In this document: one piece after another, positions 3,759 through 43,623 of the stretch | Numbering within the stretch: position 1 is the stretch's first letter | Layout: each line of letters starts with the position of its first letter | DNA from: Escherichia phage vB_EcoM_G2285 | Length of the DNA: 64,000 nt | Sequence record: MK327933.1 | Reading direction: 5' to 3' (one strand) | Notes under the pieces: generated by a model | Told to the model about the DNA's origin: nothing | Database searches by the model: none | Seen by the model: only the letters and a program-made list of their open reading frames with translations | Made by a program: the position numbers and the translations under genes

Positions 3759-4445
3759 TTAGAAGTCGTGAGTAGAATCGGCTTCCATCGCAATAACATA
3801 ACTTACTTGAGAGCTTTCAAACTTAGCTGCAACTTTATCACCAGCTCCCCACAACATTACTTTATAGTTACCTGGCTGGATTTTCATATTAGCCATATTG
3901 ATTACGAAGTTAAAGTTGTTAGAACCATCATAATCGGTAAGAGTCAAAGAATACTTAGGACGAGTTAGTCCGGAATCTTCAACTTTATTATAGCCATTGA
4001 TAACAATTTTACCATCTTTATTTGTAATAGCAATTGTATCAATCTGAAGACCACGTGAAACTCGAAGCAATTGTTGAAGGTCTTCGGCTTTAATTTCAGT
4101 AATCACAGAAGCCACTGGGAATTGAATTGGCTTATTAGGAAAAACAATGGTGCTCTTGTCAGCGGCAGGCCAATAAACTGTGGAACGTGTATCTGCAATT
4201 TTAATATTACCATCAGTGTGCATTGAAATTTCAGCATCGTCAGACACTAGACTCAAAATGCTTAAGAAGCTATTCAAATCATAAAGTGCTACGTCAAAAT
4301 CAATTTCATCAGAGATATTTGCTTCCGCATAAGTGGTGCCATTAACTGCACGAGTCATAATAAATTTACCTTGACTCAGCAGAATGCCAGAGTTAATAGA
4401 AGCGAAGTTTTTCAGAATATTTACGGTTTCACGGCTAAGTTTCAT
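3759..4445 (-). CDS. 45: Sliding clamp gp45
   Basis: 228 aa, begins MKLSRETVNILKNFASINSGILL; length and position between 44 and rpbA match gp45. Confidence 0.85.
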   Translation of the reverse strand: MKLSRETVNILKNFASINSGILLSQGKFIMTRAVNGTTYAEANISDEIDFDVALYDLNSFLSILSLVSDDAEISMHTDGNIKIADTRSTVYWPAADKSTIVFPNKPIQFPVASVITEIKAEDLQQLLRVSRGLQIDTIAITNKDGKIVINGYNKVEDSGLTRPKYSLTLTDYDGSNNFNFVINMANMKIQPGNYKVMLWGAGDKVAAKFESSQVSYVIAMEADSTHDF

Positions 4446-4804
4446 TTAGGTTTCCTATTAGCATAATAATTTGTCCAAGACCGGATAGCACCTTGGTATG
4501 ATTCATCATTAAAACCATGCTGAATTGCATGTTTTCTAAATGTAATATAACTTGGTTTTCCTAAAGCAATCCACAATTCCTTTAATTTTTGTTCATGAAA
4601 TATCCATGTACCTCTAGCTTTAGATTTTCTGAATTTATCCTTAAATTCTTTGGTTGCATTTCTTTTCGAAGCTGCGATAGAGGCCTTTGCTCTATTTTCA
4701 GGTTTAGACCAATACAATGTTTTAGATATTTTTATTTTATCTTTAACATTAGGAGAATTCATTATATCTTTAAATTTTAAAGCAAAATCTCTATCGCTAA
4801 ACAT
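4442..4804 (-). CDS. Basic 120 aa protein overlapping the 3' end of the upstream GIY-YIG-like ORF; possible DNA-binding module or separate small gene
   Basis: ATG at 4802-4804 lies inside the last 28 nt of ORF 4777-5340 in another frame; lysine/arginine rich; ATGA overlap with gene 45 start. Confidence 0.4.
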   Translation of the reverse strand: MFSDRDFALKFKDIMNSPNVKDKIKISKTLYWSKPENRAKASIAASKRNATKEFKDKFRKSKARGTWIFHEQKLKELWIALGKPSYITFRKHAIQHGFNDESYQGAIRSWTNYYANRKPK

Positions 4805-5340
4805 TTTTTAGAACGAATAGAAACTTTCTCTCTTCGTTCTTTGGTCCAATATGTTTTTTGAAATTCTCTAATTGCGTTTAAATGATTCTCCGACAATTTG
4901 CAATTTTTTCTAACACCGACGTAATCTTCATTTATTTCGTTTTTAGAAAGTTTTACTATTTTGCCTGTTTTTAAATTTTTATACGGTGCGTATCCTTTAG
5001 CTGATATTCTAGACTTCTCGTTAGCATAAGCCTTATTAAAATATTTTTCATTTGAAACGGCTTTAACATTGAGTTGGAATAGTCTTTCTATTCTTCTAGG
5101 GTCTAATGTGGTTTCGCCTAAAATTTTTACAGAATATTCGCCTTGGTCTATTAATCTGTTATATAAAGGAGAATACGAGGAATTAACACTACCGGTATAT
5201 ATTTTACCGGTAGAATCTTCAATAATATCCTTTCCATTAAAATGACACGAAACTTTAGAACCTATATAATAACACGGGTATTCATTTTTAATCTCACGAT
5301 TATAAAAGGTTATAAGATATATTAAATTCATAATTATCAA
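4777..5340 (-). CDS. Seg-like GIY-YIG endonuclease (catalytic domain), inserted between rpbA and 45
   Basis: 187 aa; N-terminus NLIYLITFYNREIKNEYPCYYIGSKVSCHF resembles the GIY...YIG motif; ATGA overlap with the rpbA stop. Confidence 0.5.
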   Translation of the reverse strand: MIIMNLIYLITFYNREIKNEYPCYYIGSKVSCHFNGKDIIEDSTGKIYTGSVNSSYSPLYNRLIDQGEYSVKILGETTLDPRRIERLFQLNVKAVSNEKYFNKAYANEKSRISAKGYAPYKNLKTGKIVKLSKNEINEDYVGVRKNCKLSENHLNAIREFQKTYWTKERREKVSIRSKKCLAIEILL

Positions 5341-5753
5341 GCAGCAACCATTTGCTTTTTAATAGCTTCAGGCAGTGATTCAATATATTCTGGAATTTTA
5401 GAAGCAACAATTTCGCCAGCTGCAATTAGTTGTTCGTCGGCATCAACACAGTAAAAATCTTCAAGGCGTTCAGAACCGTCTTTATCAAGAACGATTTTAG
5501 CACCTGCTTCGATAGAATCTTTATAGTGCTTACGCATCAAATGAATCCACATATCAGACACATCGTTATCAATAAAACCATAAATCATGAAACGAGTTTC
5601 TTGTGGAAGAGATTGAAGCTTTTTAGCACTTGCGTCATCACAATGCAGGACCCATGCTTTACGAACACGATTATGGTTATGTGGGTTAGCGTCAGTACGG
5701 ATAGAAGTAACTTTCAGATCAGCAGCAGTGAAACCTTTAGCAGTAGTAAACAT
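5337..5753 (-). CDS. rpbA: Putative RNA polymerase-binding protein RpbA
   Basis: 138 aa ORF in the position of rpbA in the T4-type 46-45.2-rpbA-45 block; assigned by synteny only. Confidence 0.45.
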   Translation of the reverse strand: MFTTAKGFTAADLKVTSIRTDANPHNHNRVRKAWVLHCDDASAKKLQSLPQETRFMIYGFIDNDVSDMWIHLMRKHYKDSIEAGAKIVLDKDGSERLEDFYCVDADEQLIAAGEIVASKIPEYIESLPEAIKKQMVAA

Positions 5754-5765
5754 ATTATTTCTCTC

Positions 5766-5957
5766 TTATTCGTAGAAGTCGGTAACTGTCCATGCGGAAT
5801 TGCGATTAGACATTATTTTATTATACTCATCTTTAAAAGCAGATTCGAGCATTTGTTCAGTAACAATATGTTCTTCACCTGAAAACGTATTGGTCAAAAC
5901 ATATTTTTTAATTTCAGGGACAACAAGAAGATGTTGACCAGTTGAATACTCCGCCAT
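5766..5957 (-). CDS. Small conserved early protein (45.2-like)
   Basis: 63 aa ORF MAEYSTGQHLLV... preceded by TATAAT; position matches T4 45.2. Confidence 0.5.
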   Translation of the reverse strand: MAEYSTGQHLLVVPEIKKYVLTNTFSGEEHIVTEQMLESAFKDEYNKIMSNRNSAWTVTDFYE

Positions 5958-5981
5958 TATAAATCTCCGAGATTAAAGCAA

Positions 5982-5989
5982 TATAAATA
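5982..5989 (+). promoter_or_regulatory. Late promoter TATAAATA upstream of the HNH endonuclease gene
   Basis: Exact TATAAATA on plus strand 46 nt upstream of the ATG at 6035. Confidence 0.5.
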
Positions 5990-6034
5990 GGTTTATCAAT
6001 TTATCTGTTGCTGTATCAAATAAGGATTTAGTAA

Positions 6035-6751
6035 ATGAATTATAACTCAATATACGAAAAGCTTATCACCAATGCTAAATCAAGAAGTTTAGATGGTTAT
6101 ACAGAACGTCATCACATTATACCACAATGTTTAGGTGGAAGTGATGATGCTTTAAACTTAGTAGACTTAACACCGGAAGAACATTATTTGGCACATCAAC
6201 TGTTGGTAAAAATCCATCCAGATAATGCCTCTTTAATATATGCTGCTCGTATGATGACTATCTCATCTCCTAAAGCAGATAGAAGCAAAAACAAATTATT
6301 TGGATGGCTTCGACGTAAGAATCAAGAAGTTCAAAAGAACAAAGAATTCACTGCTGAAACTCGTAAGAAAATGTCCGAGTCGGCAAAAAATAAACCAAAG
6401 ATTACATGTCCACACTGCGGTTTAACCGGCACTGAAGGAAACATGAGACGTTGGCATTTTGATAACTGTAAACAAGGCCCTACGCCTAAAATAGTAAAAC
6501 TTGATCAAGAAACAAAGGATAAAATAATTAAAACCATGGCCACGAAAATTTGGAAAGAAGATTCTTGCCCGTTTTGTGGCTTAACTACTAAGTTATCGGC
6601 GTTAAAGCCGCATATAAAATTCTGTAAATCAAATCCTAACAGAAAGAAAAAAGAGGACAAGAAAATTAAATGTCCTCATTGCGATAAAATAGGGATCCCT
6701 GCTAATATGCGTCGTTGGCATTTTGATAACTGTAAACATAAGCCTCATTAA
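6035..6751 (+). CDS. HNH homing endonuclease with three C-terminal zinc-ribbon-like repeats
   Basis: 238 aa; HNH core TERHHIIPQCLGGSDDALNLVDLTPEEHYLAHQ; three CPxCG...NMRRWHFDNCK-like units; only plus-strand gene in the early region, between 45.2 and 46. Confidence 0.8.
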   Translation: MNYNSIYEKLITNAKSRSLDGYTERHHIIPQCLGGSDDALNLVDLTPEEHYLAHQLLVKIHPDNASLIYAARMMTISSPKADRSKNKLFGWLRRKNQEVQKNKEFTAETRKKMSESAKNKPKITCPHCGLTGTEGNMRRWHFDNCKQGPTPKIVKLDQETKDKIIKTMATKIWKEDSCPFCGLTTKLSALKPHIKFCKSNPNRKKKEDKKIKCPHCDKIGIPANMRRWHFDNCKHKPH

Positions 6752-8436
6752 GAGGCTTTCATTACAGTAAATCGTCCAACTTTGCTCATTTGCAAATGCT
6801 GTCCATAAGCTTGTGGGTCATGGTCTCTGTGACTAATTATAAACACGTTTGCATCGGTTAGAGAGTTAAGAATTGTTGAAATAGCTTTAATACCTTCAGA
6901 ATCAGTCGCGGAATCCATGACTTCGTCCATAATTAATGTATTGATTCTAACACCAGAGACCTTTTCAGCAATATCTCGCCATGTAAACAACAACGCGATA
7001 TCAATACGTGCTTTTTCACCTTGACTAAATGAAGCATAACTGAACTCTTCACGGCCACGTGATTTTATAGATTCGTTGAATTCTTCGTCAATAGAAAACA
7101 CGTAATCAGCTTCCATGATTTTAAGATAATGGTTAATCTGCTTGTTGAACAGAGGCACATATTTTTTAATGATAGCACCTTTAATACCAGAATCTTTTAA
7201 CATATCTGTAATAATACCACGATGGTATTTTTCAAGAACGATATCTGATTTTGTTTTAATGATTTTATCAAGTTCTTTTTGAAGCAAAGCTATCTCATCG
7301 GCATGGTCGATAAATTCTGCTGAGGCTTGCTCTATTGCAGCTTTAACTTTCTTAGCTTTATCAATAGTGGCAATCATTGCTTGTTTCTTGGTACGAATAT
7401 CAGATGCAAGGTCCTGTTTAGTCTTAACATTAGCTCTATATTCGTCCACTAGGACACTCAGATTATCTCTGTGACATGTAAGTTGCTCGAATGAGTGATT
7501 ACATTCATGAAGCTTATCGGTAATCTTAGAGACAATAGGATCACCCTGGTGCAACTGTGATGCACAAGTAGGACATGTGCCACCGTCATGATACATCTTA
7601 ATAACTTTGTTATATGAGTCGATTTTAGATTTAATCAAGAATGCTTCTTGTCCTATCTTGTTGAATGCCTCAGTAGGGTCTTCGTCAAGAACGATATTAA
7701 GTAGACGCTCGTTAGCTTCTTCAATTTCTGCTTTTAATGAACGAGCTTCTTTGGCTAGGTCGTCATACATATTCTGTAGACGCGCTACATTATCACCAGA
7801 TAATTTCTTTTGACGTTCGATATTCTCGTTATAAATCTTAATTTGTTGGATAACACCATCTTTCTTGGCATCGAGAACTTGTCCCTGGGAATTAAGTTCT
7901 CGAACTTGAGACTTATTGATTTTATCCATTTCAGCGAGTGTGCCGACTTCTAAAAGGTCTTCGACAAGTTTTCTACGAGCAGGGGTGCTAAGAGCCATGA
8001 AAGGGGTATACCCTGCCGTCCCAAGCACAACGATCTGTTTAAAAGACGCGTATGACATTCCGATGCTACGTTCAAATTCTTCTTGGAAGTCACGACTGCT
8101 GGCAGATTCATCAAGACGAACACCGTCAACGGAGATTTCGAAAATATTGGGCTTTTGGCCACGTCTAATGAAGTATTTTTTATCATCGAATTCCATCCAA
8201 AGCTCAACTAAGAGCTCTTTCTTGTTCGTGCTATTAATGATTTGTCCTTTCTTAACATCACGAAATGGTTTACCGAAAAGTCCGAAAGTAATGGCTTCTA
8301 ACATCGTAGATTTACCACCGCCATTTTTACCTGTGATTAAGGTCTTTTGGACTTTATCTAATTGGATATCGATAAAATTTTGCCCAACAGACATTATATT
8401 TTTATAACGAACACGATTTAATTTAAATGTTTTCAT
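6748..8436 (-). CDS. 46: Recombination/repair ATPase gp46 (SbcC/Rad50-like)
   Basis: 562 aa; Walker A GKNGGGKST near N-terminus, long coiled coil, CPTC zinc hook, C-terminal ABC signature and Walker B (LIMDEV). Confidence 0.9.
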   Translation of the reverse strand: MKTFKLNRVRYKNIMSVGQNFIDIQLDKVQKTLITGKNGGGKSTMLEAITFGLFGKPFRDVKKGQIINSTNKKELLVELWMEFDDKKYFIRRGQKPNIFEISVDGVRLDESASSRDFQEEFERSIGMSYASFKQIVVLGTAGYTPFMALSTPARRKLVEDLLEVGTLAEMDKINKSQVRELNSQGQVLDAKKDGVIQQIKIYNENIERQKKLSGDNVARLQNMYDDLAKEARSLKAEIEEANERLLNIVLDEDPTEAFNKIGQEAFLIKSKIDSYNKVIKMYHDGGTCPTCASQLHQGDPIVSKITDKLHECNHSFEQLTCHRDNLSVLVDEYRANVKTKQDLASDIRTKKQAMIATIDKAKKVKAAIEQASAEFIDHADEIALLQKELDKIIKTKSDIVLEKYHRGIITDMLKDSGIKGAIIKKYVPLFNKQINHYLKIMEADYVFSIDEEFNESIKSRGREEFSYASFSQGEKARIDIALLFTWRDIAEKVSGVRINTLIMDEVMDSATDSEGIKAISTILNSLTDANVFIISHRDHDPQAYGQHLQMSKVGRFTVMKAS

Positions 8437-11632: not shown

Positions 11633-11860
11633 TCATTCTAGTTCCTTTGCTGCTTCAAGAGCAGCATCCAACGAATCAAATTGGTCAACGAAATCAATAT
11701 TCAACGCATCGTCAACCGTAGCATATAACCACCATTGTTTGAATTCGTATTCTAGAATAAATCCAGGACCTTCAATCTGAGGAAGACCTAGACTATTTGT
11801 ACCAACTTCGTAACCAGCTAGACGCAGGTCATTAATCAAAGTTTCTGTTAATACGCTCAT
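11633..11860 (-). CDS. Hypothetical small acidic protein
   Basis: 75 aa ORF, ATGA overlap with upstream gene. Confidence 0.5.
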   Translation of the reverse strand: MSVLTETLINDLRLAGYEVGTNSLGLPQIEGPGFILEYEFKQWWLYATVDDALNIDFVDQFDSLDAALEAAKELE

Positions 11861-12189
11861 TTTACCGCCTTAACAATTTTAAGGTCAACGAATTTTTTCT
11901 TACGTTGATTTTTCATACGACGGATAGTCTTTTCAGAGATTTCATGTTTCTGATAAGCTTTAGATTCAACACCAAATGCAGCAACGTCAAATTCAGAAAG
12001 AATATATTGTACTAGAATTTCACGAATAGAATTACGTCCAATTTTCTGGTCGTGTTTTTGCATGATTTCATAAAGACGGAATTCCCACGCATCAAGAACT
12101 TGAGGAGTAACAATATTGCCAGATTCCAGAAGAGCAACAACTTTATCGAAAGCGAAAGAATTAACTACGTTTTTGATTTTAGTAGACAT
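11857..12189 (-). CDS. Hypothetical protein
   Basis: ORF 11857-12228; start placed at the internal Met (MSTKIKNVV...) at 12189 because the -10 element lies at 12227-12232; SD GAGGA upstream. Confidence 0.5.
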   Translation of the reverse strand: MSTKIKNVVNSFAFDKVVALLESGNIVTPQVLDAWEFRLYEIMQKHDQKIGRNSIREILVQYILSEFDVAAFGVESKAYQKHEISEKTIRRMKNQRKKKFVDLKIVKAVK

Positions 12190-12214
12190 ATTATTTTCCT
12201 CGGTTATTTTATTA

Positions 12215-12258
12215 TCCAATGAGAGCATTATACTCTGCTCTCAAGAGTTTGTAAATCG
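12215..12258 (-). promoter_or_regulatory. Early-type promoter cassette with -10 inside a 7-bp inverted repeat (copy 1 of a duplicated ~50 bp element)
   Basis: Minus strand ATTTAC-18 nt-TATAAT; GAGAGCA (12221-12227) and TGCTCTC (12235-12241) flank the -10; same element at 39901-39936. Confidence 0.5.
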
Positions 12259-12471
12259 TTATCCGAACTTTTTAGCGCCTTTCCAGCCTTCGTACATAAC
12301 TGCACAAGTCAGTAGTACAGCGTGCTGGCATTCTTTGTATTTGTAAATCCAGAACCAGCGTAAGAAGTCTTCATCCTCAACGCCGTTGAGTTTCATATTG
12401 GCAAAGAATTCGGCACGTTCTTCACGAAGCTTTTGCGATAACATAGATTCAGGATTCATTTTGTGTTCCAC
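12259..12471 (-). CDS. Hypothetical small protein
   Basis: 70 aa ORF. Confidence 0.45.
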   Translation of the reverse strand: MEHKMNPESMLSQKLREERAEFFANMKLNGVEDEDFLRWFWIYKYKECQHAVLLTCAVMYEGWKGAKKFG

Positions 12472-12590
12472 ACCCCATTTTCATCGATGAACTTAATCCA
12501 GTCATTTACAGACCATTTAGTTGTATCGCCCTTTGGATTAACATTTAAAGTATATAATCCCTGCTTAAAAAGCATTCGTTTGATATTCAT
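12456..12590 (-). CDS. Hypothetical small protein (start uncertain)
   Basis: ORF 12456-12683 overlaps the next ORF by 86 nt; internal Met at 12590 gives a 44 aa product. Confidence 0.25.
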   Translation of the reverse strand: MNIKRMLFKQGLYTLNVNPKGDTTKWSVNDWIKFIDENGVWNTK

Positions 12591-12597
12591 AATTTCC

Positions 12598-12891
12598 TCA
12601 ACTGTAACGATAACATTCGTTAGCTTTACGTTTGGCTTCAGTATGAGAAGTATTATAATCATACTCTTCTTTACTGTAAACATCTTTTTTCAACTTACGA
12701 ACTTCTTTGCGGAGTTGTCGATTCATTTCATTCTTGACTTCAGAATCAACGCCTTTCATACGTTTCCATTTATCTGAGCGGAAAATGTTTTCAACCATGT
12801 CTTTGTGGCTAACACCGTCAGGAGCTTTACGTTTACCAAAATAGTCATAATCACGAACTTTCAAATCTTTACGACGATACGTTTTACCCAT
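12598..12891 (-). CDS. Hypothetical basic protein
   Basis: ORF 12598-12918; start probably the second Met (MGKTYRRKDLKVRDYDYFGKRK...) at 12891. Confidence 0.45.
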   Translation of the reverse strand: MGKTYRRKDLKVRDYDYFGKRKAPDGVSHKDMVENIFRSDKWKRMKGVDSEVKNEMNRQLRKEVRKLKKDVYSKEEYDYNTSHTEAKRKANECYRYS

Positions 12892-12898
12892 AGCTACC

Positions 12899-13147
12899 TC
12901 AGAGGTTGATTGATACAACGCGTTTGATAAAATTCACTTCACTTACTGAAAGGTCTTTAAGACCGATTGATTCTAAACGCTGAATAAAAGTCAACATTGG
13001 GATATAGTCCCAATGTGTTTTAGACGTTTGATAAGTACGGACGCCATTAGCAATTTCAACGTTCAAATCGGAAATGGTAATGAATATCGGACGTTCGTTA
13101 TTTACATTAAGAGATAGAACAACTTTCTTCGAATTCAGACTAATCAT
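12899..13147 (-). CDS. Hypothetical protein
   Basis: ORF 12899-13309; start placed at internal Met (MISLNSKKVV...) at 13147 with SD GAGGA; upstream part overlaps promoter and hairpin. Confidence 0.4.
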   Translation of the reverse strand: MISLNSKKVVLSLNVNNERPIFITISDLNVEIANGVRTYQTSKTHWDYIPMLTFIQRLESIGLKDLSVSEVNFIKRVVSINL

Positions 13148-13947: not shown

Positions 13948-14418
13948 TTAATCATGTTTCCACACCCCATTGGTATTTAACCAAAGTCGCTGATTATCTG
14001 ATCCTCGCCACAGCTTTTTAGTCGGAAGATTTTTCTCATACTTCCCATCAATAATAACATCAACATATTTAAGCATTTCTAGCTGTTTAATATCTTCAAA
14101 CTTATATCCTGTCCACAACCAAATGCTTTTATTGGGATAAAGATTTTTTACTGTTTGAACAATGCAATGAATAACATCTCGGTTATCAGGATAGAGAGGG
14201 TCACCTCCGGTTATAGTCAATCCTTCTATATAATCATTATTCAAACATTCAATTAATTGTTCTAGTGTTTCACCAGTGAATGGAATACCATTTCTAGCAT
14301 TCCATGTTGATTTATTATAACACCCTTCACATTTATGCAAACAACCTGTAACGAAAAGAACGACCCTGCAACCAGGGCCATTCACAAAATCGCAAGGATA
14401 AAATCTATCATAATTCAT
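13948..14418 (-). CDS. nrdG: Anaerobic ribonucleotide reductase activating protein NrdG (radical SAM)
   Basis: 156 aa; cysteine cluster CDFVNGPGCRVVLFVTGCLHKCEGCYN; ATGA overlap with nrdD. Confidence 0.85.
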   Translation of the reverse strand: MNYDRFYPCDFVNGPGCRVVLFVTGCLHKCEGCYNKSTWNARNGIPFTGETLEQLIECLNNDYIEGLTITGGDPLYPDNRDVIHCIVQTVKNLYPNKSIWLWTGYKFEDIKQLEMLKYVDVIIDGKYEKNLPTKKLWRGSDNQRLWLNTNGVWKHD

Positions 14419-15746
14419 TGGTGTTTAACCCTATGCATTATTTCTTTATTTTTACCGAGATTAAATCCGCGTTCGTTCGGATTTCCCAAATAACCGCATG
14501 TTCTTCTTATGGTGTTCATCTTTTTAGGATCAGTTTCTCCGCAAACTGAACAAACAAATCCGTTTTCAGTAGGAGTCATTTCATGGGTACTTCCGCATGT
14601 AAAACATTTATCTACTGGCATATTAACACCAAAATAATCTAAATGTTGTGCAGCATAATCCCATACGGCCTCAAGACCTTTTAAGTTATTTTTCATATCA
14701 GGAAGTTCAACATAAGAAATGTGGCCACCTGTCGCAATGAAATGATATGGTGCTTCACGAGAAATCTTTTCAAACGGAGTAATATTTTCTTCTACTGAAA
14801 CATGGAAACTATTAGTGTACCAGCCTTTATCAGTGACATCCTTTACACTTCCATATTTTTCTGTATCAAGTTTACAGAAGCGATAACAAAGGTTTTCAGC
14901 AGGAGTCGAATATAAACTAAAAGCAAACCCAGTTCTTTCAGTCCACTGTTTAAGATGAGCATTCATTTTAGTTAAAATTTCCTGTCCAATATCACGACCG
15001 ACAAGAATATTCAATTCATGAATACCAATGTATCCTAGGGACACTGAACTTCTACCGTTTTTAAATAACTCAATTATGTCGTCATCAGGTTTAAGACGAA
15101 CCCCGAATGCACCTTCTTGGTAAAGAATAGGAGCAACAGTCGCTTTAACTCCTTTTAAGGAACTAATTCTACACATCAAAGCTTCAAAACACAAATCCAT
15201 TCGTTCATTGAATAATTCAACAAATTTCTGTTCATTGAACTGTGTTCCAATATAAGAATCTAACGCGATGCGAGGAAGATTCAATGTTACAACACCAAGA
15301 TTATTACGTCCATCAAGAATTTCATTACCAGTCGAATCTTTCCATACGCTCAAGAAACTACGGCAGCCCATTGGAGAAACTGGAACTGAAGAACCGGTAA
15401 TAGCTTTATTATTCTTAACCGAAATAATGTCAGGATACATTCTTTTGCTTGCACATTCTAACGCAAGTTGTTTAATATCATAGTTCGGATCATCTTTATA
15501 AAGATTAACACCTTCTTCAACAAACATAACAAGCTTAGGGAAAATAGGAGTTATCCCATCACGACCAAGACCTTTAATCCGATTTTTCAGAATTGCTTTC
15601 TGAATCATTCGTTCAGTCCAGTCAGTTCCAGTACCAAATGTAATTGTTACAAAAGGCGTTTGTCCATTTGAACTGAAAAGTGTATTTACTTCATCATTAT
15701 ATTCAGCATGAGTCGCAAATTCATGCTCGTTTATATGAAACAACAA
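14415..15746 (-). CDS. nrdD: Anaerobic ribonucleotide reductase NrdD, C-terminal part (exon 2; 5' boundary is ORF-based, not the true splice site)
   Basis: 443 aa ORF ending with the glycyl radical motif RRTCGYLG and a C-terminal Cys4 cluster (CFTCGS...CSVCGE). Confidence 0.8.
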   Translation of the reverse strand: MLFHINEHEFATHAEYNDEVNTLFSSNGQTPFVTITFGTGTDWTERMIQKAILKNRIKGLGRDGITPIFPKLVMFVEEGVNLYKDDPNYDIKQLALECASKRMYPDIISVKNNKAITGSSVPVSPMGCRSFLSVWKDSTGNEILDGRNNLGVVTLNLPRIALDSYIGTQFNEQKFVELFNERMDLCFEALMCRISSLKGVKATVAPILYQEGAFGVRLKPDDDIIELFKNGRSSVSLGYIGIHELNILVGRDIGQEILTKMNAHLKQWTERTGFAFSLYSTPAENLCYRFCKLDTEKYGSVKDVTDKGWYTNSFHVSVEENITPFEKISREAPYHFIATGGHISYVELPDMKNNLKGLEAVWDYAAQHLDYFGVNMPVDKCFTCGSTHEMTPTENGFVCSVCGETDPKKMNTIRRTCGYLGNPNERGFNLGKNKEIMHRVKHQ

Positions 15747-16491
15747 AATTTGGATAGTCCATAGATATGCAACGTTCTTTTATAGTGCTAGGATGAAAAT
15801 TTAGCGCTTTAGCTGCTTCTATATAAGACGTATACTTAATACCGTCAACAACCACATATTCAGGAACTTTATGAATAGTAGTCTTAATACTCAAAACAAG
15901 AGGATGAGTTTCGACTTCACTTTCAGTGCAATTTAAATATTCCGCTGCTTTTTTAAAACTTCTAAAAGTTTTATTTTTAAGCTTTATCGATACTTGTTTT
16001 TTACTTTTTCGACTATTGATATTATTTTGCACATGTTCCTTAGATCTTCCGTTTTTAGCATAATATTCAGCTACAGAAGATTTTATATTGTTTTTATGAG
16101 ATTCGGATAACACTTTACCCTTATGAGCATCTCTTAATTTTTGAATATGTTCTTCAGTATCCGGATGCTTATAAAACTTTTTACCGCCTATGGATTTATT
16201 TAAACATTTTTTGCTATAAAAATATTTACGTATGACCTCTTCTTCATGTTTTAATGCATCTTTATAACTATCAAATGTTTTTAAAATTATCCATTTAGTA
16301 GGTGTATCAGTTTTTAAGCGTTCATTTATATACTTAGATGACGTTGTGTAAGTTTTCCAGTTTGTGGGCTTGTTTTTAATTGTTCTAAATTTTTTATAAC
16401 CGATATAAATGTCGCCATTAGAAAACTTAACTAAGTATGTAAATGCGTCTTTATCTTTTATTTTAGTACAACGTCTTTTTATCCATTTCAT
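15721..16491 (-). CDS. Intron-encoded GIY-YIG homing endonuclease (I-TevII-like)
   Basis: 256 aa ORF inside the interruption of nrdD; N-terminal YLVKFSNGDIYIGYKK resembles the GIY-YIG motif; basic C-terminal region. Confidence 0.7.
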   Translation of the reverse strand: MKWIKRRCTKIKDKDAFTYLVKFSNGDIYIGYKKFRTIKNKPTNWKTYTTSSKYINERLKTDTPTKWIILKTFDSYKDALKHEEEVIRKYFYSKKCLNKSIGGKKFYKHPDTEEHIQKLRDAHKGKVLSESHKNNIKSSVAEYYAKNGRSKEHVQNNINSRKSKKQVSIKLKNKTFRSFKKAAEYLNCTESEVETHPLVLSIKTTIHKVPEYVVVDGIKYTSYIEAAKALNFHPSTIKERCISMDYPNFVVSYKRA

Positions 16492-16735
16492 TGTTTCACC
16501 TCGTATTCATAAGATAATCTTATTTATACAAGATGACTGCTGCATGTCGCCATGCAGATTAGACTATATCTTCATCTTTCGATGCCGGCCGTTTCGAATA
16601 GCATTAGCTTCTATTCTACACCGCTACATTCATCACGGTTAGTCGTTAGGCATTTAGTTCAAAAGAACATTTAGCACGGGATTGTCTACTAGAGAGGTTC
16701 CCCGTTTAGACCGGTTTTACATGAGCCTGAATTAA
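15740..16735 (-). mobile_element. Probable group I intron interrupting nrdD (boundaries approximate)
   Basis: About 1 kb separates the two nrdD reading-frame segments and contains the endonuclease ORF plus about 240 nt of structured non-coding sequence (16492-16731); arrangement as in the T4 nrdD intron. Confidence 0.55.
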
Positions 16736-17277
16736 ATTAACTCATACGCCTGGAATGCATCGTATACGTCTTTTTCTGTTTTAGATTGAGCATAATTCAA
16801 CGCATCAGCGATTTGCCATTTTTCTGCATCTTCAATATGTTTAGCATATGTGCGTTTAACATAAGGAGAAAGTACTTTATCTACATTCGCAAATGTAGTT
16901 CCGCCATACTGGTGTGAAGCAACTTGCGCGGTAATTTGTGCCATAATTGCAGTAGCAACACCGATTGATTTAGGAGTTTCAATCTGTGCATTACCTAGCT
17001 TAAATCCGTTTTCAAGCATTCCTTTTAAATCTACTAAACAACAATTAGTAAATGGAAGAGCAGGGGAATAATCAATATCGTGCACGTGAATAATTCCGCT
17101 TTCATGCGCTTTCATAATAAAAGACGGGACTATATTTTTGGCAATGTGTTTAGACACAATACCAGCCATAAGGTCCCGTTGAGTTGGAAAAACACGAGAA
17201 TCTTTATTAGCATTCTCGTTTAAAAGGTCTTTATTAGTTTTATGAATCAATCCTTCAATTTCTTTTTCAATTGTCAT
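16732..17277 (-). CDS. nrdD: Anaerobic ribonucleotide reductase NrdD, N-terminal part (exon 1; 3' boundary is ORF-based)
   Basis: 181 aa ORF MTIEKEIEGLIHKTNKDLL... running into a stop inside the putative intron. Confidence 0.7.
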   Translation of the reverse strand: MTIEKEIEGLIHKTNKDLLNENANKDSRVFPTQRDLMAGIVSKHIAKNIVPSFIMKAHESGIIHVHDIDYSPALPFTNCCLVDLKGMLENGFKLGNAQIETPKSIGVATAIMAQITAQVASHQYGGTTFANVDKVLSPYVKRTYAKHIEDAEKWQIADALNYAQSKTEKDVYDAFQAYELI

Positions 17278-39271: not shown

Positions 39272-39865
39272 TTATTTCAAAGAGTTAATATATTCTTGTA
39301 CATCAGCAGAAGTGGTTTCGACACCAGCTGGAGTGCCATTGAACGTTTCAACACGAGTCAGAGTGTCTTCGATATCAACCTTAGTCAGTGCAGCGATTTC
39401 AATTACATCATCGGCCGTAGAGATACCAAGGGCATTGGCTGCTCGAGTTTCACGAATGTATTCGAGTTTGATTGCTAGATTCTGACGAGCATCATCAAGT
39501 TCAACCACCTTACGAGCAATTTCAATTCGCATAGCGGCATACCCGTCAGCTTTTGTATTAAGTTGTTCGGCAGTTCGACGATACAGAAGACCAAGCTTAG
39601 CATGCATGGTAACATCTTGTCCTTCAGCCAAGAGCTTACGAATTTCACGTTCCTTAGAAGCGGCTTGCTTGTTCTTTTCATTAACAAGTTCGCGAATACG
39701 TTTTTCTTCATTAATAGATTTAACAGAAGCCGTTTTTAGTTCTTTGATTTGGGTAATCAACTTATCTGCAGCTGCGTTATACTGTTCTTCGACAGTCAGA
39801 TTTTTAGCCATAGCAGTACCCAGTTTAGTGCGGATGAATTCGACAAGTTTCTTCAGTGTGTTCAT
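39272..39865 (-). CDS. Coiled-coil protein, possibly PspA/IM30-like
   Basis: ORF 39272-39880, likely start MNTLKKL at 39865; about 200 aa of predicted continuous alpha-helical coiled coil; resemblance to PspA is by composition and length only. Confidence 0.4.
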
Positions 39866-39900
39866 ATTATTACCTTTCAATTGGTGGTTTATTATCCAAC

Positions 39901-39936
39901 GAGAGCATTATACTCTGCTCTCAAGAGATTGTAAAT
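39901..39936 (-). promoter_or_regulatory. Early-type promoter cassette, copy 2 of the duplicated ~50 bp element
   Basis: TTATTATCCAACGAGAGCATTATACTCTGCTCTCAAGAGATTGTAAAT; differs at two positions from the copy at 12.2 kb. Confidence 0.5.
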
Positions 39937-40163
39937 TATTTTTTAATCAAATTGACATAAAACTCGGCGTCTTCCGGGTGCATGCCTTCGCAGTATTCTT
40001 CAACCATGAACTTCTTAACAGCTTCATAAGGACCGCTCAGATTAAGCTCAGTTGTCCAGAACTTGGAATCTTGGACCGAATCGATACGAACTTCAGGGTG
40101 ACGGTTGCGAATAACTTCTTCTGTGTATTCATAATCAACGACATCAATACTAACTTTAGCCAT
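39936..40163 (-). CDS. Hypothetical small acidic protein
   Basis: 75 aa ORF. Confidence 0.5.
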   Translation of the reverse strand: MAKVSIDVVDYEYTEEVIRNRHPEVRIDSVQDSKFWTTELNLSGPYEAVKKFMVEEYCEGMHPEDAEFYVNLIKK

Positions 40164-42183: not shown

Positions 42184-42221
42184 ATAGGACTACTATAACA
42201 TAGTCCTATAGGCTTGTATAC
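42184..42221 (-). promoter_or_regulatory. Promoter/stem-loop cassette (PeSL-like)
   Basis: Palindrome ATAGGACTACTATAACATAGTCCTAT (42184-42209) and -35-like GTATAC (42216-42221). Confidence 0.5.
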
Positions 42222-42223
42222 CT

Positions 42224-42487
42224 TTATTTCAAATATATTGCGTATTTTTTATAGCCACCAGGCTCGTGTCGAAGACCTTTATCATTCGCAAAACGTTGAA
42301 TGTTATTGAACTGATTTTCATCAAGTTCGGATGTGTCAAATATGAAAAAGTTTCGTTTGTTACCAAGCGTGATATGCGGAGTTAAGTCAATGTTATACAA
42401 ATTAAGAATATCAGCAATAACCTGTTTGGCCGCTTTGTTAATTTTCACACCAGACGATTCTGAGATGAATTCGTTGAAAGTTTTCAT
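42224..42487 (-). CDS. Internal-protein-like small protein with capsid-targeting N-terminus
   Basis: ORF 42224-42499; from MKTFNEFISESSG it is 87 aa; located in the ipI-equivalent locus next to 57B. Confidence 0.55.
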   Translation of the reverse strand: MKTFNEFISESSGVKINKAAKQVIADILNLYNIDLTPHITLGNKRNFFIFDTSELDENQFNNIQRFANDKGLRHEPGGYKKYAIYLK

Positions 42488-42511
42488 TTTAGGTTCCATT
42501 TGGTTGTTTTG

Positions 42512-42549
42512 ATAGGACTACTATAACATAGTCCTATCATGTTGTAAAC
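42512..42549 (-). promoter_or_regulatory. Promoter/stem-loop cassette (PeSL-like)
   Basis: Palindrome ATAGGACTACTATAACATAGTCCTAT (42512-42537) plus minus-strand GTTTAC (42544-42549). Confidence 0.5.
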
Positions 42550-42857
42550 TATTTTATTCCGCGTGATGCAATTGTGTTCTGTCGTTTAACACCAGTTTGT
42601 TTAAAGTCATGATTGTCGATTTGATCGGTACGAGCAACTCCGAATGATGATTTGATTTTAGCTTTAGATCCTTTAGTTATAGAAATAAACATCTCGGAAG
42701 CCCCTTTCTTAAAGTCCGAAGCGATTACTTCAACACCGTTCTTAGCAAGTGACTTCAGAATTGCATCCGCAAACTCATCGTCAAGACCTACCTGAGTATA
42801 AATAATAAATGTCTTTGGTGCAGCAGCTTCATTGATAAATTCTTTAAATGTTTTCAT
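42549..42857 (-). CDS. Internal-protein-like small protein with capsid-targeting N-terminus
   Basis: 102 aa; N-terminal MKTFKEFINEAAA; basic. Confidence 0.55.
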   Translation of the reverse strand: MKTFKEFINEAAAPKTFIIYTQVGLDDEFADAILKSLAKNGVEVIASDFKKGASEMFISITKGSKAKIKSSFGVARTDQIDNHDFKQTGVKRQNTIASRGIK

Positions 42858-42886
42858 TTTATTTCCTTTAATTTTGTTTTGTTTTG

Positions 42887-42924
42887 ATAGGACTACTATA
42901 ACATAGCCCTATAACATTGTAAAC
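42887..42924 (-). promoter_or_regulatory. Promoter/stem-loop cassette (PeSL-like)
   Basis: Palindrome ATAGGACTACTATAACATAGCCCTAT (42887-42912) plus minus-strand GTTTAC (42919-42924). Confidence 0.5.
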
Positions 42925-42937
42925 TGTTTTGTGAAAA

Positions 42938-43623
<686 letters not shown>

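Follow-up and report, generated by a model that had tools for sequence, protein, structure and literature searches.

Small intergenic cassettes that combine a strong sigma-70-like promoter with a stem-loop were defined in RB49 and phi1 as PeSLs (Arbiol et al. 2010, PMC2839356), and later work added T4/PST and KVP40/nt-1 to the class (Comeau et al. 2014, PMC4122927). According to these reports, the stems occupy five positions, most commonly between the -35 and -10 elements or overlapping the -10 (PMC2839356, PMC4122927), G·T pairs occur in the stems, and the 3' end carries a Shine-Dalgarno sequence and a start codon (PMC2839356). One RB49 stem-loop (PeSL211/210) was tested and gave attenuation about equal to that of a strong terminator, and recombination between PeSLs shuffled ORFs and yielded mini-circles (PMC2839356). 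For RB69, 58 early promoters were predicted (Nolan et al. 2006, PMC1524935, Additional file 3), including Pe:42515 (55.2 site), Pe:42816, Pe:72069 (e.6 site), Pe:136687 and Pe:165022. A term search of the main text of that paper returned no mention of a palindrome, inverted repeat or stem, so the paper does not appear to describe the inverted repeat or the paralogy between sites.

The window, the 64,000-nt stretch of DNA analyzed as a whole, comes from an RB69-like T-even phage of the genus Mosigvirus. Its early-gene half (~200-42,200) is collinear with RB69 and 93-98% identical to it in most blocks, with a few short blocks lower, and identity to RB69 drops to ~84% in the baseplate/tail-fibre half beyond 42.4 kb. 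An earlier note, made from the letters of the window, had described a promoter cassette repeated with two mismatches at 12210-12258 and 39890-39936. A repeat finder returned a 49-nt pair at 12208-12256 and 39888-39936, 27,680 nt apart, 96% identical with 2 mismatches and in the same orientation as a direct repeat; the repeat, its mismatches and, essentially, the second interval stood, and the first interval proved to be shifted by ~2 nt. A degenerate 48-mer had 2 exact matches in the window, at 12209-12256 and 39889-39936 (plus-strand coordinates), and none in 100 dinucleotide-preserving shuffles. Read on the minus strand, copy 1 is ATTTACAAACTCTTGAGAGCAGAGTATAATGCTCTCATTGGATAATAAA and copy 2 is ATTTACAATCTCTTGAGAGCAGAGTATAATGCTCTCGTTGGATAATAAA. 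Compared base by base and anchored on the -35, the two copies are alike from the A before TTTACA to GGATAATAAA, outside which the flanks of both fall to background identity, giving the repeat sharp bounds. Around both copies, the window matches many Mosigvirus genomes at 94-98% identity.

Each copy takes up the gap between a pair of unrelated genes on the minus strand, 55.3/55.2 for copy 1 (12208..12256) and frd.3/e.6 for copy 2 (39888..39936), the gene names being assigned by position and RB69 annotation. Copy 1 is preceded by the gp55.3 homologue (12259..12459, minus strand, DUF5490), whose stop codon lies 2 nt before the cassette, and followed by the gp55.2 homologue (11857..12189, minus strand, 110 aa, DUF7570). 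Copy 2 is preceded by the frd.3 homologue (39936..40163, minus strand, Pfam Phage_FRD3) and followed by the e.6 homologue (39272..39865, minus strand, 197 aa, no Pfam family). Blastp at E<=10 found no match between the two downstream proteins or between the two upstream proteins, and the Pfam families differ, in agreement with the earlier claim that the neighboring genes are unrelated.

Both sites carry TTTACA-17-TATAAT on the minus strand, with 11/12 matches to the sigma-70 consensus and no TG extension; counted with the preceding A (A-TTTACA-17 nt-TATAAT), this is the same element that the note had read as ATTTAC-18 nt-TATAAT. In copy 1 the -35 lies at 12250..12255, the preceding A at 12256 making it a T4-type ATTTAC, and the -10 at 12227..12232. 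In copy 2 the -35 (39930..39935) adjoins the frd.3 stop codon TAA (39938-39936), which overlaps the first base of the cassette, and the promoter scan placed the -10 at 39907..39912. Both sites thus show the T4-type early promoter consensus taken from PMC1524935 and PMC4122927, namely (G/A)TTTAC with a TATAAT-like element ~18 nt later, 5' of an early-region gene. In both copies the -10 is enclosed by an 8-bp inverted repeat, TGAGAGCA/TGCTCTC(A/G) with the 8-nt loop GAGTATAA; this bears out the description of a -10 embedded between GAGAGCA and TGCTCTC. The copy 1 hairpin (12220..12243, minus strand) consists of the 5' arm TGAGAGCA (12243-12236), the loop (12235-12228) and the 3' arm TGCTCTCA (12227-12220); five bases of the -10 are in the loop, and its last T is the first base of the 3' arm. 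The copy 2 hairpin (39900..39923, minus strand) has the same 5' arm and loop with the 3' arm TGCTCTCG, and its closing pair is a U·G wobble. The copy 1 leader UUGGAUAAUAAAAUAACCGAGGAAAAUAAU (12190..12219, minus strand) has its first 12 nt in common with copy 2, and a Shine-Dalgarno sequence and ATG follow 30-34 nt past the -10 at both sites (GAGG...ATG at 12189, AAGG...ATG at 39865). Upstream of the -35, where PeSLs carry an AT-rich tract, site 2 is directly preceded by TTAAAAAATAA, and for site 1 there is just CTAAAAAG, ~10 nt further upstream and within the coding end of 55.3.

These features place the cassette close to both described systems. The RB69 promoters Pe:42515 and Pe:72069 are the positional orthologues of the two window copies, Pe:136687 and Pe:165022 are paralogues at the pseT.1 and ndd sites, and the T4-type GTTTAC/TATAAT architecture is common to all of them; at the 55.2 site, the window allele differs from that of RB69 in having another stem, another -35 and no ORF075c module. 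With both copies pointing toward the downstream gene and their orthologues already predicted as early promoters, the promoter reading of the earlier note held, and from its sequence and that published prediction the cassette is very likely an early sigma-70 promoter driving 55.2 and e.6. Like the PeSLs as published, it is an intergenic sigma-70-type promoter directed toward the downstream ORF and fused to a stem-loop, at its 3' end stand the next gene's Shine-Dalgarno sequence and start codon, its stem overlaps the -10 and contains G·T pairs, and it is repeated before unrelated small genes, beside indels between close relatives. In contrast to them, its stem is GAGAGCA/TGCTCTC instead of the G-run/C-run of RB49 or the AGNA/TCNT frequent in PST/T4, it has no U-run, and an RB69-like Mosigvirus is not among the pairs treated in the cited reports. 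We consider it probable that both repeats are paralogous PeSL (early-promoter/stem-loop) cassettes and work by the mechanism set out below. The class itself is already described, and the cassette is a further example of it and no new class of element.

Folded as RNA, the 58-nt segments around the sites reached -13.8 kcal/mol (z -3.57) at site 1 and -14.8 kcal/mol (z -4.41) at site 2, and 0 of 200 shuffles were as stable. For covariation, 18 distinct family members were gathered with a pattern leaving both arms free, aligned without gaps, and scored over the 8-bp helix. Pairing was retained in 97.9% of cells, compared with 86.0% in shuffles (0/500), and fell to 34-53% in controls in which the partner was slid by 1-3 columns; the covariation score was 0.477 vs 0.246. 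Six of the eight stem pairs had changes on both sides (e.g. A-U/G-C, G-C/C-G/U-A and C-G/A-U/U-A), the independent compensatory events being fewer than the cell counts because the members are kin by descent. The 55.2-site orthologues are an example, with window TGAGAGCA/TGCTCTCA and RB69 CGAGAGAT/TTCTCTCG separated by two compensatory double changes. Departures from Watson-Crick pairing were asymmetric, with 14 sense-strand G·U cells vs 2 C·A cells, the latter corresponding to G·U on the other strand. Within this alignment the compensatory changes show that the hairpin stem is under selection; a palindromic operator co-evolving with a protein would covary too.

Hairpins of this kind are not confined to the two copies. 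A scan for T4-type early promoters found 22 sites, all on the minus strand in the early half of the window, and 11 of the 22 had hairpins with z<-2. Summed over the 22 sites, the folding energy was -185.9 kcal/mol, compared with -80.2 kcal/mol for shuffles in which both hexamers were held fixed and the other positions were permuted, and with -159.0 kcal/mol for the antisense strand, the sense folds being the more stable because of G·U pairs. Unrelated stem families coexist among them: ATAGG(A/G)CTA/TAGTCCTAT, AGGTCTAT/ATAGACCT, spacer hairpins with an AGGA loop, and the GAGAGCA stem. A hairpin at early promoters is a general feature of this phage, and the wobble asymmetry together with the varied stems and registers within one genome argues for a structure of the sense strand, most simply RNA. 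Three tandem promoter-hairpin cassettes with the ATAGG(A/G)CTA/TAGTCCTAT stem were seen on the minus strand at 42924, 42549 and 42221 (42192-42924), each before a small ORF of the internal-protein (ipI) region; they are spaced 328-375 nt apart, the spacing reported for RB49 PeSL mini-circles. A further TTTACA-17-TATAAT (11/12, minus strand, 12652-12681), also accompanied by a hairpin (z about -3), falls within the candidate ORF 12598..12918 and not in a gap; as the candidate ORF 12456..12683 overlaps 12598..12918, this could be an internal promoter, or the ORF calls could be doubtful.

Transcription usually starts ~7 nt after the -10, which puts the predicted starts at ~12220 and ~39900 on the minus strand. 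Host sigma-70 RNA polymerase would begin there right after infection and transcribe 55.2 and e.6. Since the 3' arm ends at +1 for a start at this distance, the hairpin would be absent from the cassette's own transcript, and the inverted repeat would be transcribed whole only in read-through RNA from 55.3 or frd.3. In that RNA it would form an 8-bp hairpin ~20 nt past the upstream stop codon and, by analogy with the RB49 PeSLs, could serve either as an attenuator of read-through or as a protective 3' end that insulates neighboring one-gene early units. A literature search for genome-wide T4 start-site or 3'-end maps that might show a promoter and hairpin of the motB type in vivo gave nothing usable.

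As in intrinsic terminators, a stable hairpin stands just past a stop codon; unlike them, the stem is followed by UUGGAUAAUAAA and not by a U-run, and the terminator consensus scan called neither cassette hairpin, reporting terminator-like sites nearby at 39263-39246 and 13315-13297. A canonical intrinsic terminator was ruled out on these two grounds. The missing U-run weakens the proposed role in read-through RNA and leaves a terminator function as something deduced; the terminator activity of the RB49 PeSL, which has a G/C-rich stem, may not transfer to this hairpin. An action in read-through RNA, as attenuator or protective 3' end, and a DNA-level or other role are in our judgment about evenly balanced. 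A known structured RNA was also ruled out, the Rfam gathering scan of the whole window giving two tRNAs only. Automated tools have annotated the homologous cassette in phage ASO78A as a terminator. Another repeat in the window, 27084-27121/40617-40654 (38 nt, 87%), reads AAAAAGCCCCAACCGTAAGGAAGGGGCTA; on the minus strand it forms a GC-rich hairpin followed by a T-run and so looks like a duplicated intrinsic terminator, and both of its copies adjoin a promoter of the AGGT(C/T)TA family.

The hairpin might instead act in DNA, as a small cruciform or a hairpin in single-stranded DNA, by modulating promoter melting or by offering recombination a preferred entry site, with any RNA effects incidental. 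G·T pairs are tolerated in single-stranded DNA as well, so the strand asymmetry would fit the non-template DNA strand too, and the cassette of phage APCEc01 looks recombinant with a crossover in the loop. However, arms of 8 bp and a loop of 8 nt are short for cruciform extrusion, and in a sigma-70 open complex the upstream arm remains double-stranded; we regard this explanation as unlikely. A palindromic operator, at which a dimeric phage or host protein bound over the -10 would co-regulate 55.2, e.6, ndd and the gene after pseT.1, for instance in the shut-off of early promoters, would also account for the covariation of the half-sites. Early-promoter shut-off has been described as not completely understood (PMC3014915), and the half-sites GAGAGCA/TGCTCTC are common to three of the four RB69 copies and both window copies. 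An operator fits poorly with at least four unrelated stems in one genome (GAGAGCA, ATAGGACTA, AGGTCTAT and the CCA-AGGA-TGG spacer hairpins) at varied positions relative to the -10, with departures from symmetry that are mostly G·T on the sense strand (the 14 vs 2 cells above) and with sense folds that are more stable than antisense folds across the window; no candidate protein was identified, and we hold an operator to be distinctly improbable. To a similarly small degree we can envisage that the hairpin over the -10 is a recognized sense-strand structure, in RNA or DNA, which a phage factor uses to shut off this subset of early promoters or to direct recombination toward a deliberate transfer of promoter+ORF modules. 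If that were true, the homogenization of cassettes within a genome would be the footprint of a dedicated exchange system and not of general homologous recombination.

Under the preferred reading as PeSL cassettes, the same ~48 nt standing before unrelated genes would make a short homology patch for the very active recombination system of the phage, and recombination there would lead to gene conversion between cassettes and to gain or loss of promoter+ORF modules. The distribution of the subfamily across genera bears on this. A 56-nt query had matches in 755 phage records, and the subfamily occupies four places per genome in Mosigvirus, two in Dhakavirus and one in Tequatrovirus. The four RB69 copies precede 55.2, e.6, ndd and the ORF after pseT.1; the Dhakavirus sites are the 55.2 site and one after pseT.2; and T4 and its relatives carry their copy in front of motB or a MotB-like gene. 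The promoter-like T4 motB cassette, GTTTACAAACTCTTGGGACCAGAGTATAATGGTCCCG, is the sole subfamily copy in Tequatrovirus genomes. It has the -35-proximal spacer AAACTCTT and the loop GAGTATAAT identical to those of the window copies and the hairpin in the same register, but lies at another locus and has the stem GGGACCA/TGGTCCC, with compensatory differences. A pattern fixing only TTTACAAACTCT and GAGTATAAT, with the arms free, recovered 21 loci from viral contigs. With the relaxed pattern TACAANCTCT-N9-AGTATAAT, run against viral and metagenome collections, the matches listed were mostly chance hits on unrelated environmental contigs; loci were kept only if their flanks matched RB69 by blastn, which added at least a few more members. 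One locus on a 93-kb contig, with the stem TCGAAG/CTTCAG, was excluded from the family alignment, as its flanks had not been shown to be homologous.

The earlier note had proposed that the regulatory cassette itself was copied or exchanged, and edit distances computed over 46 nt support this. The window 55.2-site cassette is 2 edits from the window e.6 site and 1 from the RB69 e.6 site, compared with 7 from its positional orthologue at the RB69 55.2 site and 10 from the Dhakavirus 55.2 site. Within Dhakavirus, the 55.2 and pseT sites are 2 apart. In one genome the ndd-site cassette is 2 from the motB-site cassette of a related genome and 11 from the ndd site of RB69. The cassettes group by phage lineage and not by locus, and their copies evolve in concert within a lineage. 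The variation in copy number and loci between genera also supports copying or exchange, as does T4: there, only 13 nt separate 55.3 from 55.2, with no promoter between them, and e.6 is preceded by another early promoter (GTTTACAATCTATTAGAAACGTGATATTAT), which has an inverted repeat of its own. The end of the T4 55.3 gene still has TTGGATAATAAAAT, which is the cassette leader. Site 2 of the window shares TTTACAATCT with the T4 e.6 promoter and then switches to 55.2-type sequence; most likely, an older e.6 promoter was for the most part replaced in the Mosigvirus lineage by a tract of the 55.2 type, a direction that rests on few outgroup sequences.

Exchange is also seen at the 55.2 site itself, where the collinearity of the window with RB69 ends at 12249-12253, within the site 1 -35. 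Between 55.3 and the 55.2 cassette, RB69 carries an insert that consists of a second promoter-hairpin (ATGTAC...GATAGGGAAGA/TCTTCCTATC) and ORF075c, and the junction of this module falls in the shared TACAA. The RB69-type junction was covered over >=80% of the query in 134 database records, and only 12 records, PhAPEC2 (100%) among them, matched the window-type junction contiguously at >=99%; the majority of the remaining Mosigvirus matches to the window-type junction came in two pieces ~300 nt apart. Site 1 lies exactly where most Mosigviruses have an extra promoter+ORF module. The 55.2-site cassette is polymorphic among Mosigviruses, as observed in APCEc01 (143053-143753) and LF82-1 (113260-114219). 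APCEc01 has a chimeric stem, with the e.6-like 5' arm TGAGAGCA, the RB69-like 3' arm TTCTCTCG and one C·U mismatch. The LF82-1 cassette at this site combines an e.6-like stem with a -35 that has degraded to CGCACA, and the cassette upstream of it has kept a compensated stem, GGTAGGAAGA/TCTTCCTACC, and lost the -10, making it a 'half PeSL'. The RB69 55.3 CDS as annotated (42725-43006) runs through the ORF075c promoter-hairpin to a C-terminus ...KKVRLIMYNDREDMLLSSYRLKMRKISWPKN; a run of A is 6 long in RB69 and 5 long in the window and in APCEc01, in both of which 55.3 ends ...GAKKFG*, a difference that suggests a frameshift or a sequencing or annotation artefact in the RB69 record.

Repetition and association with indels, which belong to the published definition of PeSLs, were both found here, with 22 sites, 11 of them with strong hairpins, and with 7 of the 19 window/RB69 junctions lying <=30 nt from an early-promoter core, compared with 1.55 expected at random (P~0.0004), an enrichment that is partly trivial, since promoters lie between genes and that is where indels of whole genes have to end. 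At 5 of the 7 promoter-near junctions the alignment blocks overlap, as recombination between two similar cassettes produces. Taken comparatively, the aligned genomes show the cassettes as recombination substrates, with conversion and with gain or loss of modules as the outcome.

It is very improbable that the copies are alike through purifying selection shared by strong promoters, or by chance, with no copying or exchange. The -35, the -10 and part of the spacer are indeed conserved across T-even genera, but the identity takes in an arbitrary stem sequence and the 12-nt leader, the positional orthologue in RB69 differs at 7 positions and a paralogue at 1-2, and T4 is without the cassette at the 55.2 site and has another promoter at e.6; these distances and T4 contradict such an account. 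Similarity limited to generic promoter consensus positions, which the earlier note had named as the finding that would tell against it, is not what the alignment gives, as the identity also covers spacer, stem and leader; with the 0/100 shuffles, this ruled out chance and generic consensus. That the repeat is what erosion has left of a larger segmental duplication, or a transposable-element end, has next to no likelihood and was ruled out: the direct, same-orientation repeat would suit it, but similarity stops abruptly at both ends between unrelated flanking proteins, apart from the hairpin there are no terminal inverted repeats, a target duplication and a nearby transposase are likewise absent, and the same cassette has the same boundaries at other loci in other genera.

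The cassette offers a clean worked example of how small early genes are kept in T-even phages: promoter, hairpin, ribosome site and ORF form one self-contained unit that can be swapped. Relative to the PeSL description in the cited reports, it adds a stem maintained by compensatory substitutions and mostly sense-strand G·U wobbles, one subfamily common to Tequatro-, Dhaka- and Mosigviruses at differing loci and copy numbers, and the concerted evolution of copies within a lineage. For annotation, such repeats are better called promoters than terminators or mobile elements. As 48-nt repeats they are recombination hazards and potential landing pads, and hence useful for phage engineering. Otherwise, the cassette belongs to a class already described, and its phage group has been studied heavily; the orthologous RB69 promoters were predicted twenty years ago, and it opens no new question.

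Other insertions relative to RB69 were noticed in the window. The gene nrdD is split (14415-17277, minus strand) into an N-terminal ORF (16732..17277) and a C-terminal ORF (14415..15746), between which lie a group I intron core (Rfam RF00028, 70.6 bits, 16540-16775), missed by the gathering scan of the whole window and seen only when the 1.25-kb region was searched alone, and an ORF for a 256-aa GIY-YIG/NUMOD1 homing endonuclease (15721..16491). RB69 is without this 1047-bp insert, which presumably resembles the T4 sunY/nrdD intron with I-TevII. An insert of ~800 bp at 5952-6759 holds a plus-strand ORF of 238 aa (6035..6751) with an HNH-like N-terminus (HHIIPQCLGG...HYLAH) and zinc-ribbon-like cysteine motifs, namely two copies of a CPHCG...MRRWHFDNCK unit and a third, related CPFCG...FCK; the two-copy unit accounts for a DNA repeat at 6398-6474/6662-6738, and the ORF is probably a free-standing homing endonuclease, to judge from these motifs. 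An insert of ~900 bp at 4419-5334 lies just upstream of gene 45 (clamp), on the minus strand between gene 45 and the ORF 5337..5753. It contains the minus-strand ORFs 4777..5340 and 4442..4804, neither with a Pfam match, and the former has a GIY-YIG-like N-terminus (YYIGSK).
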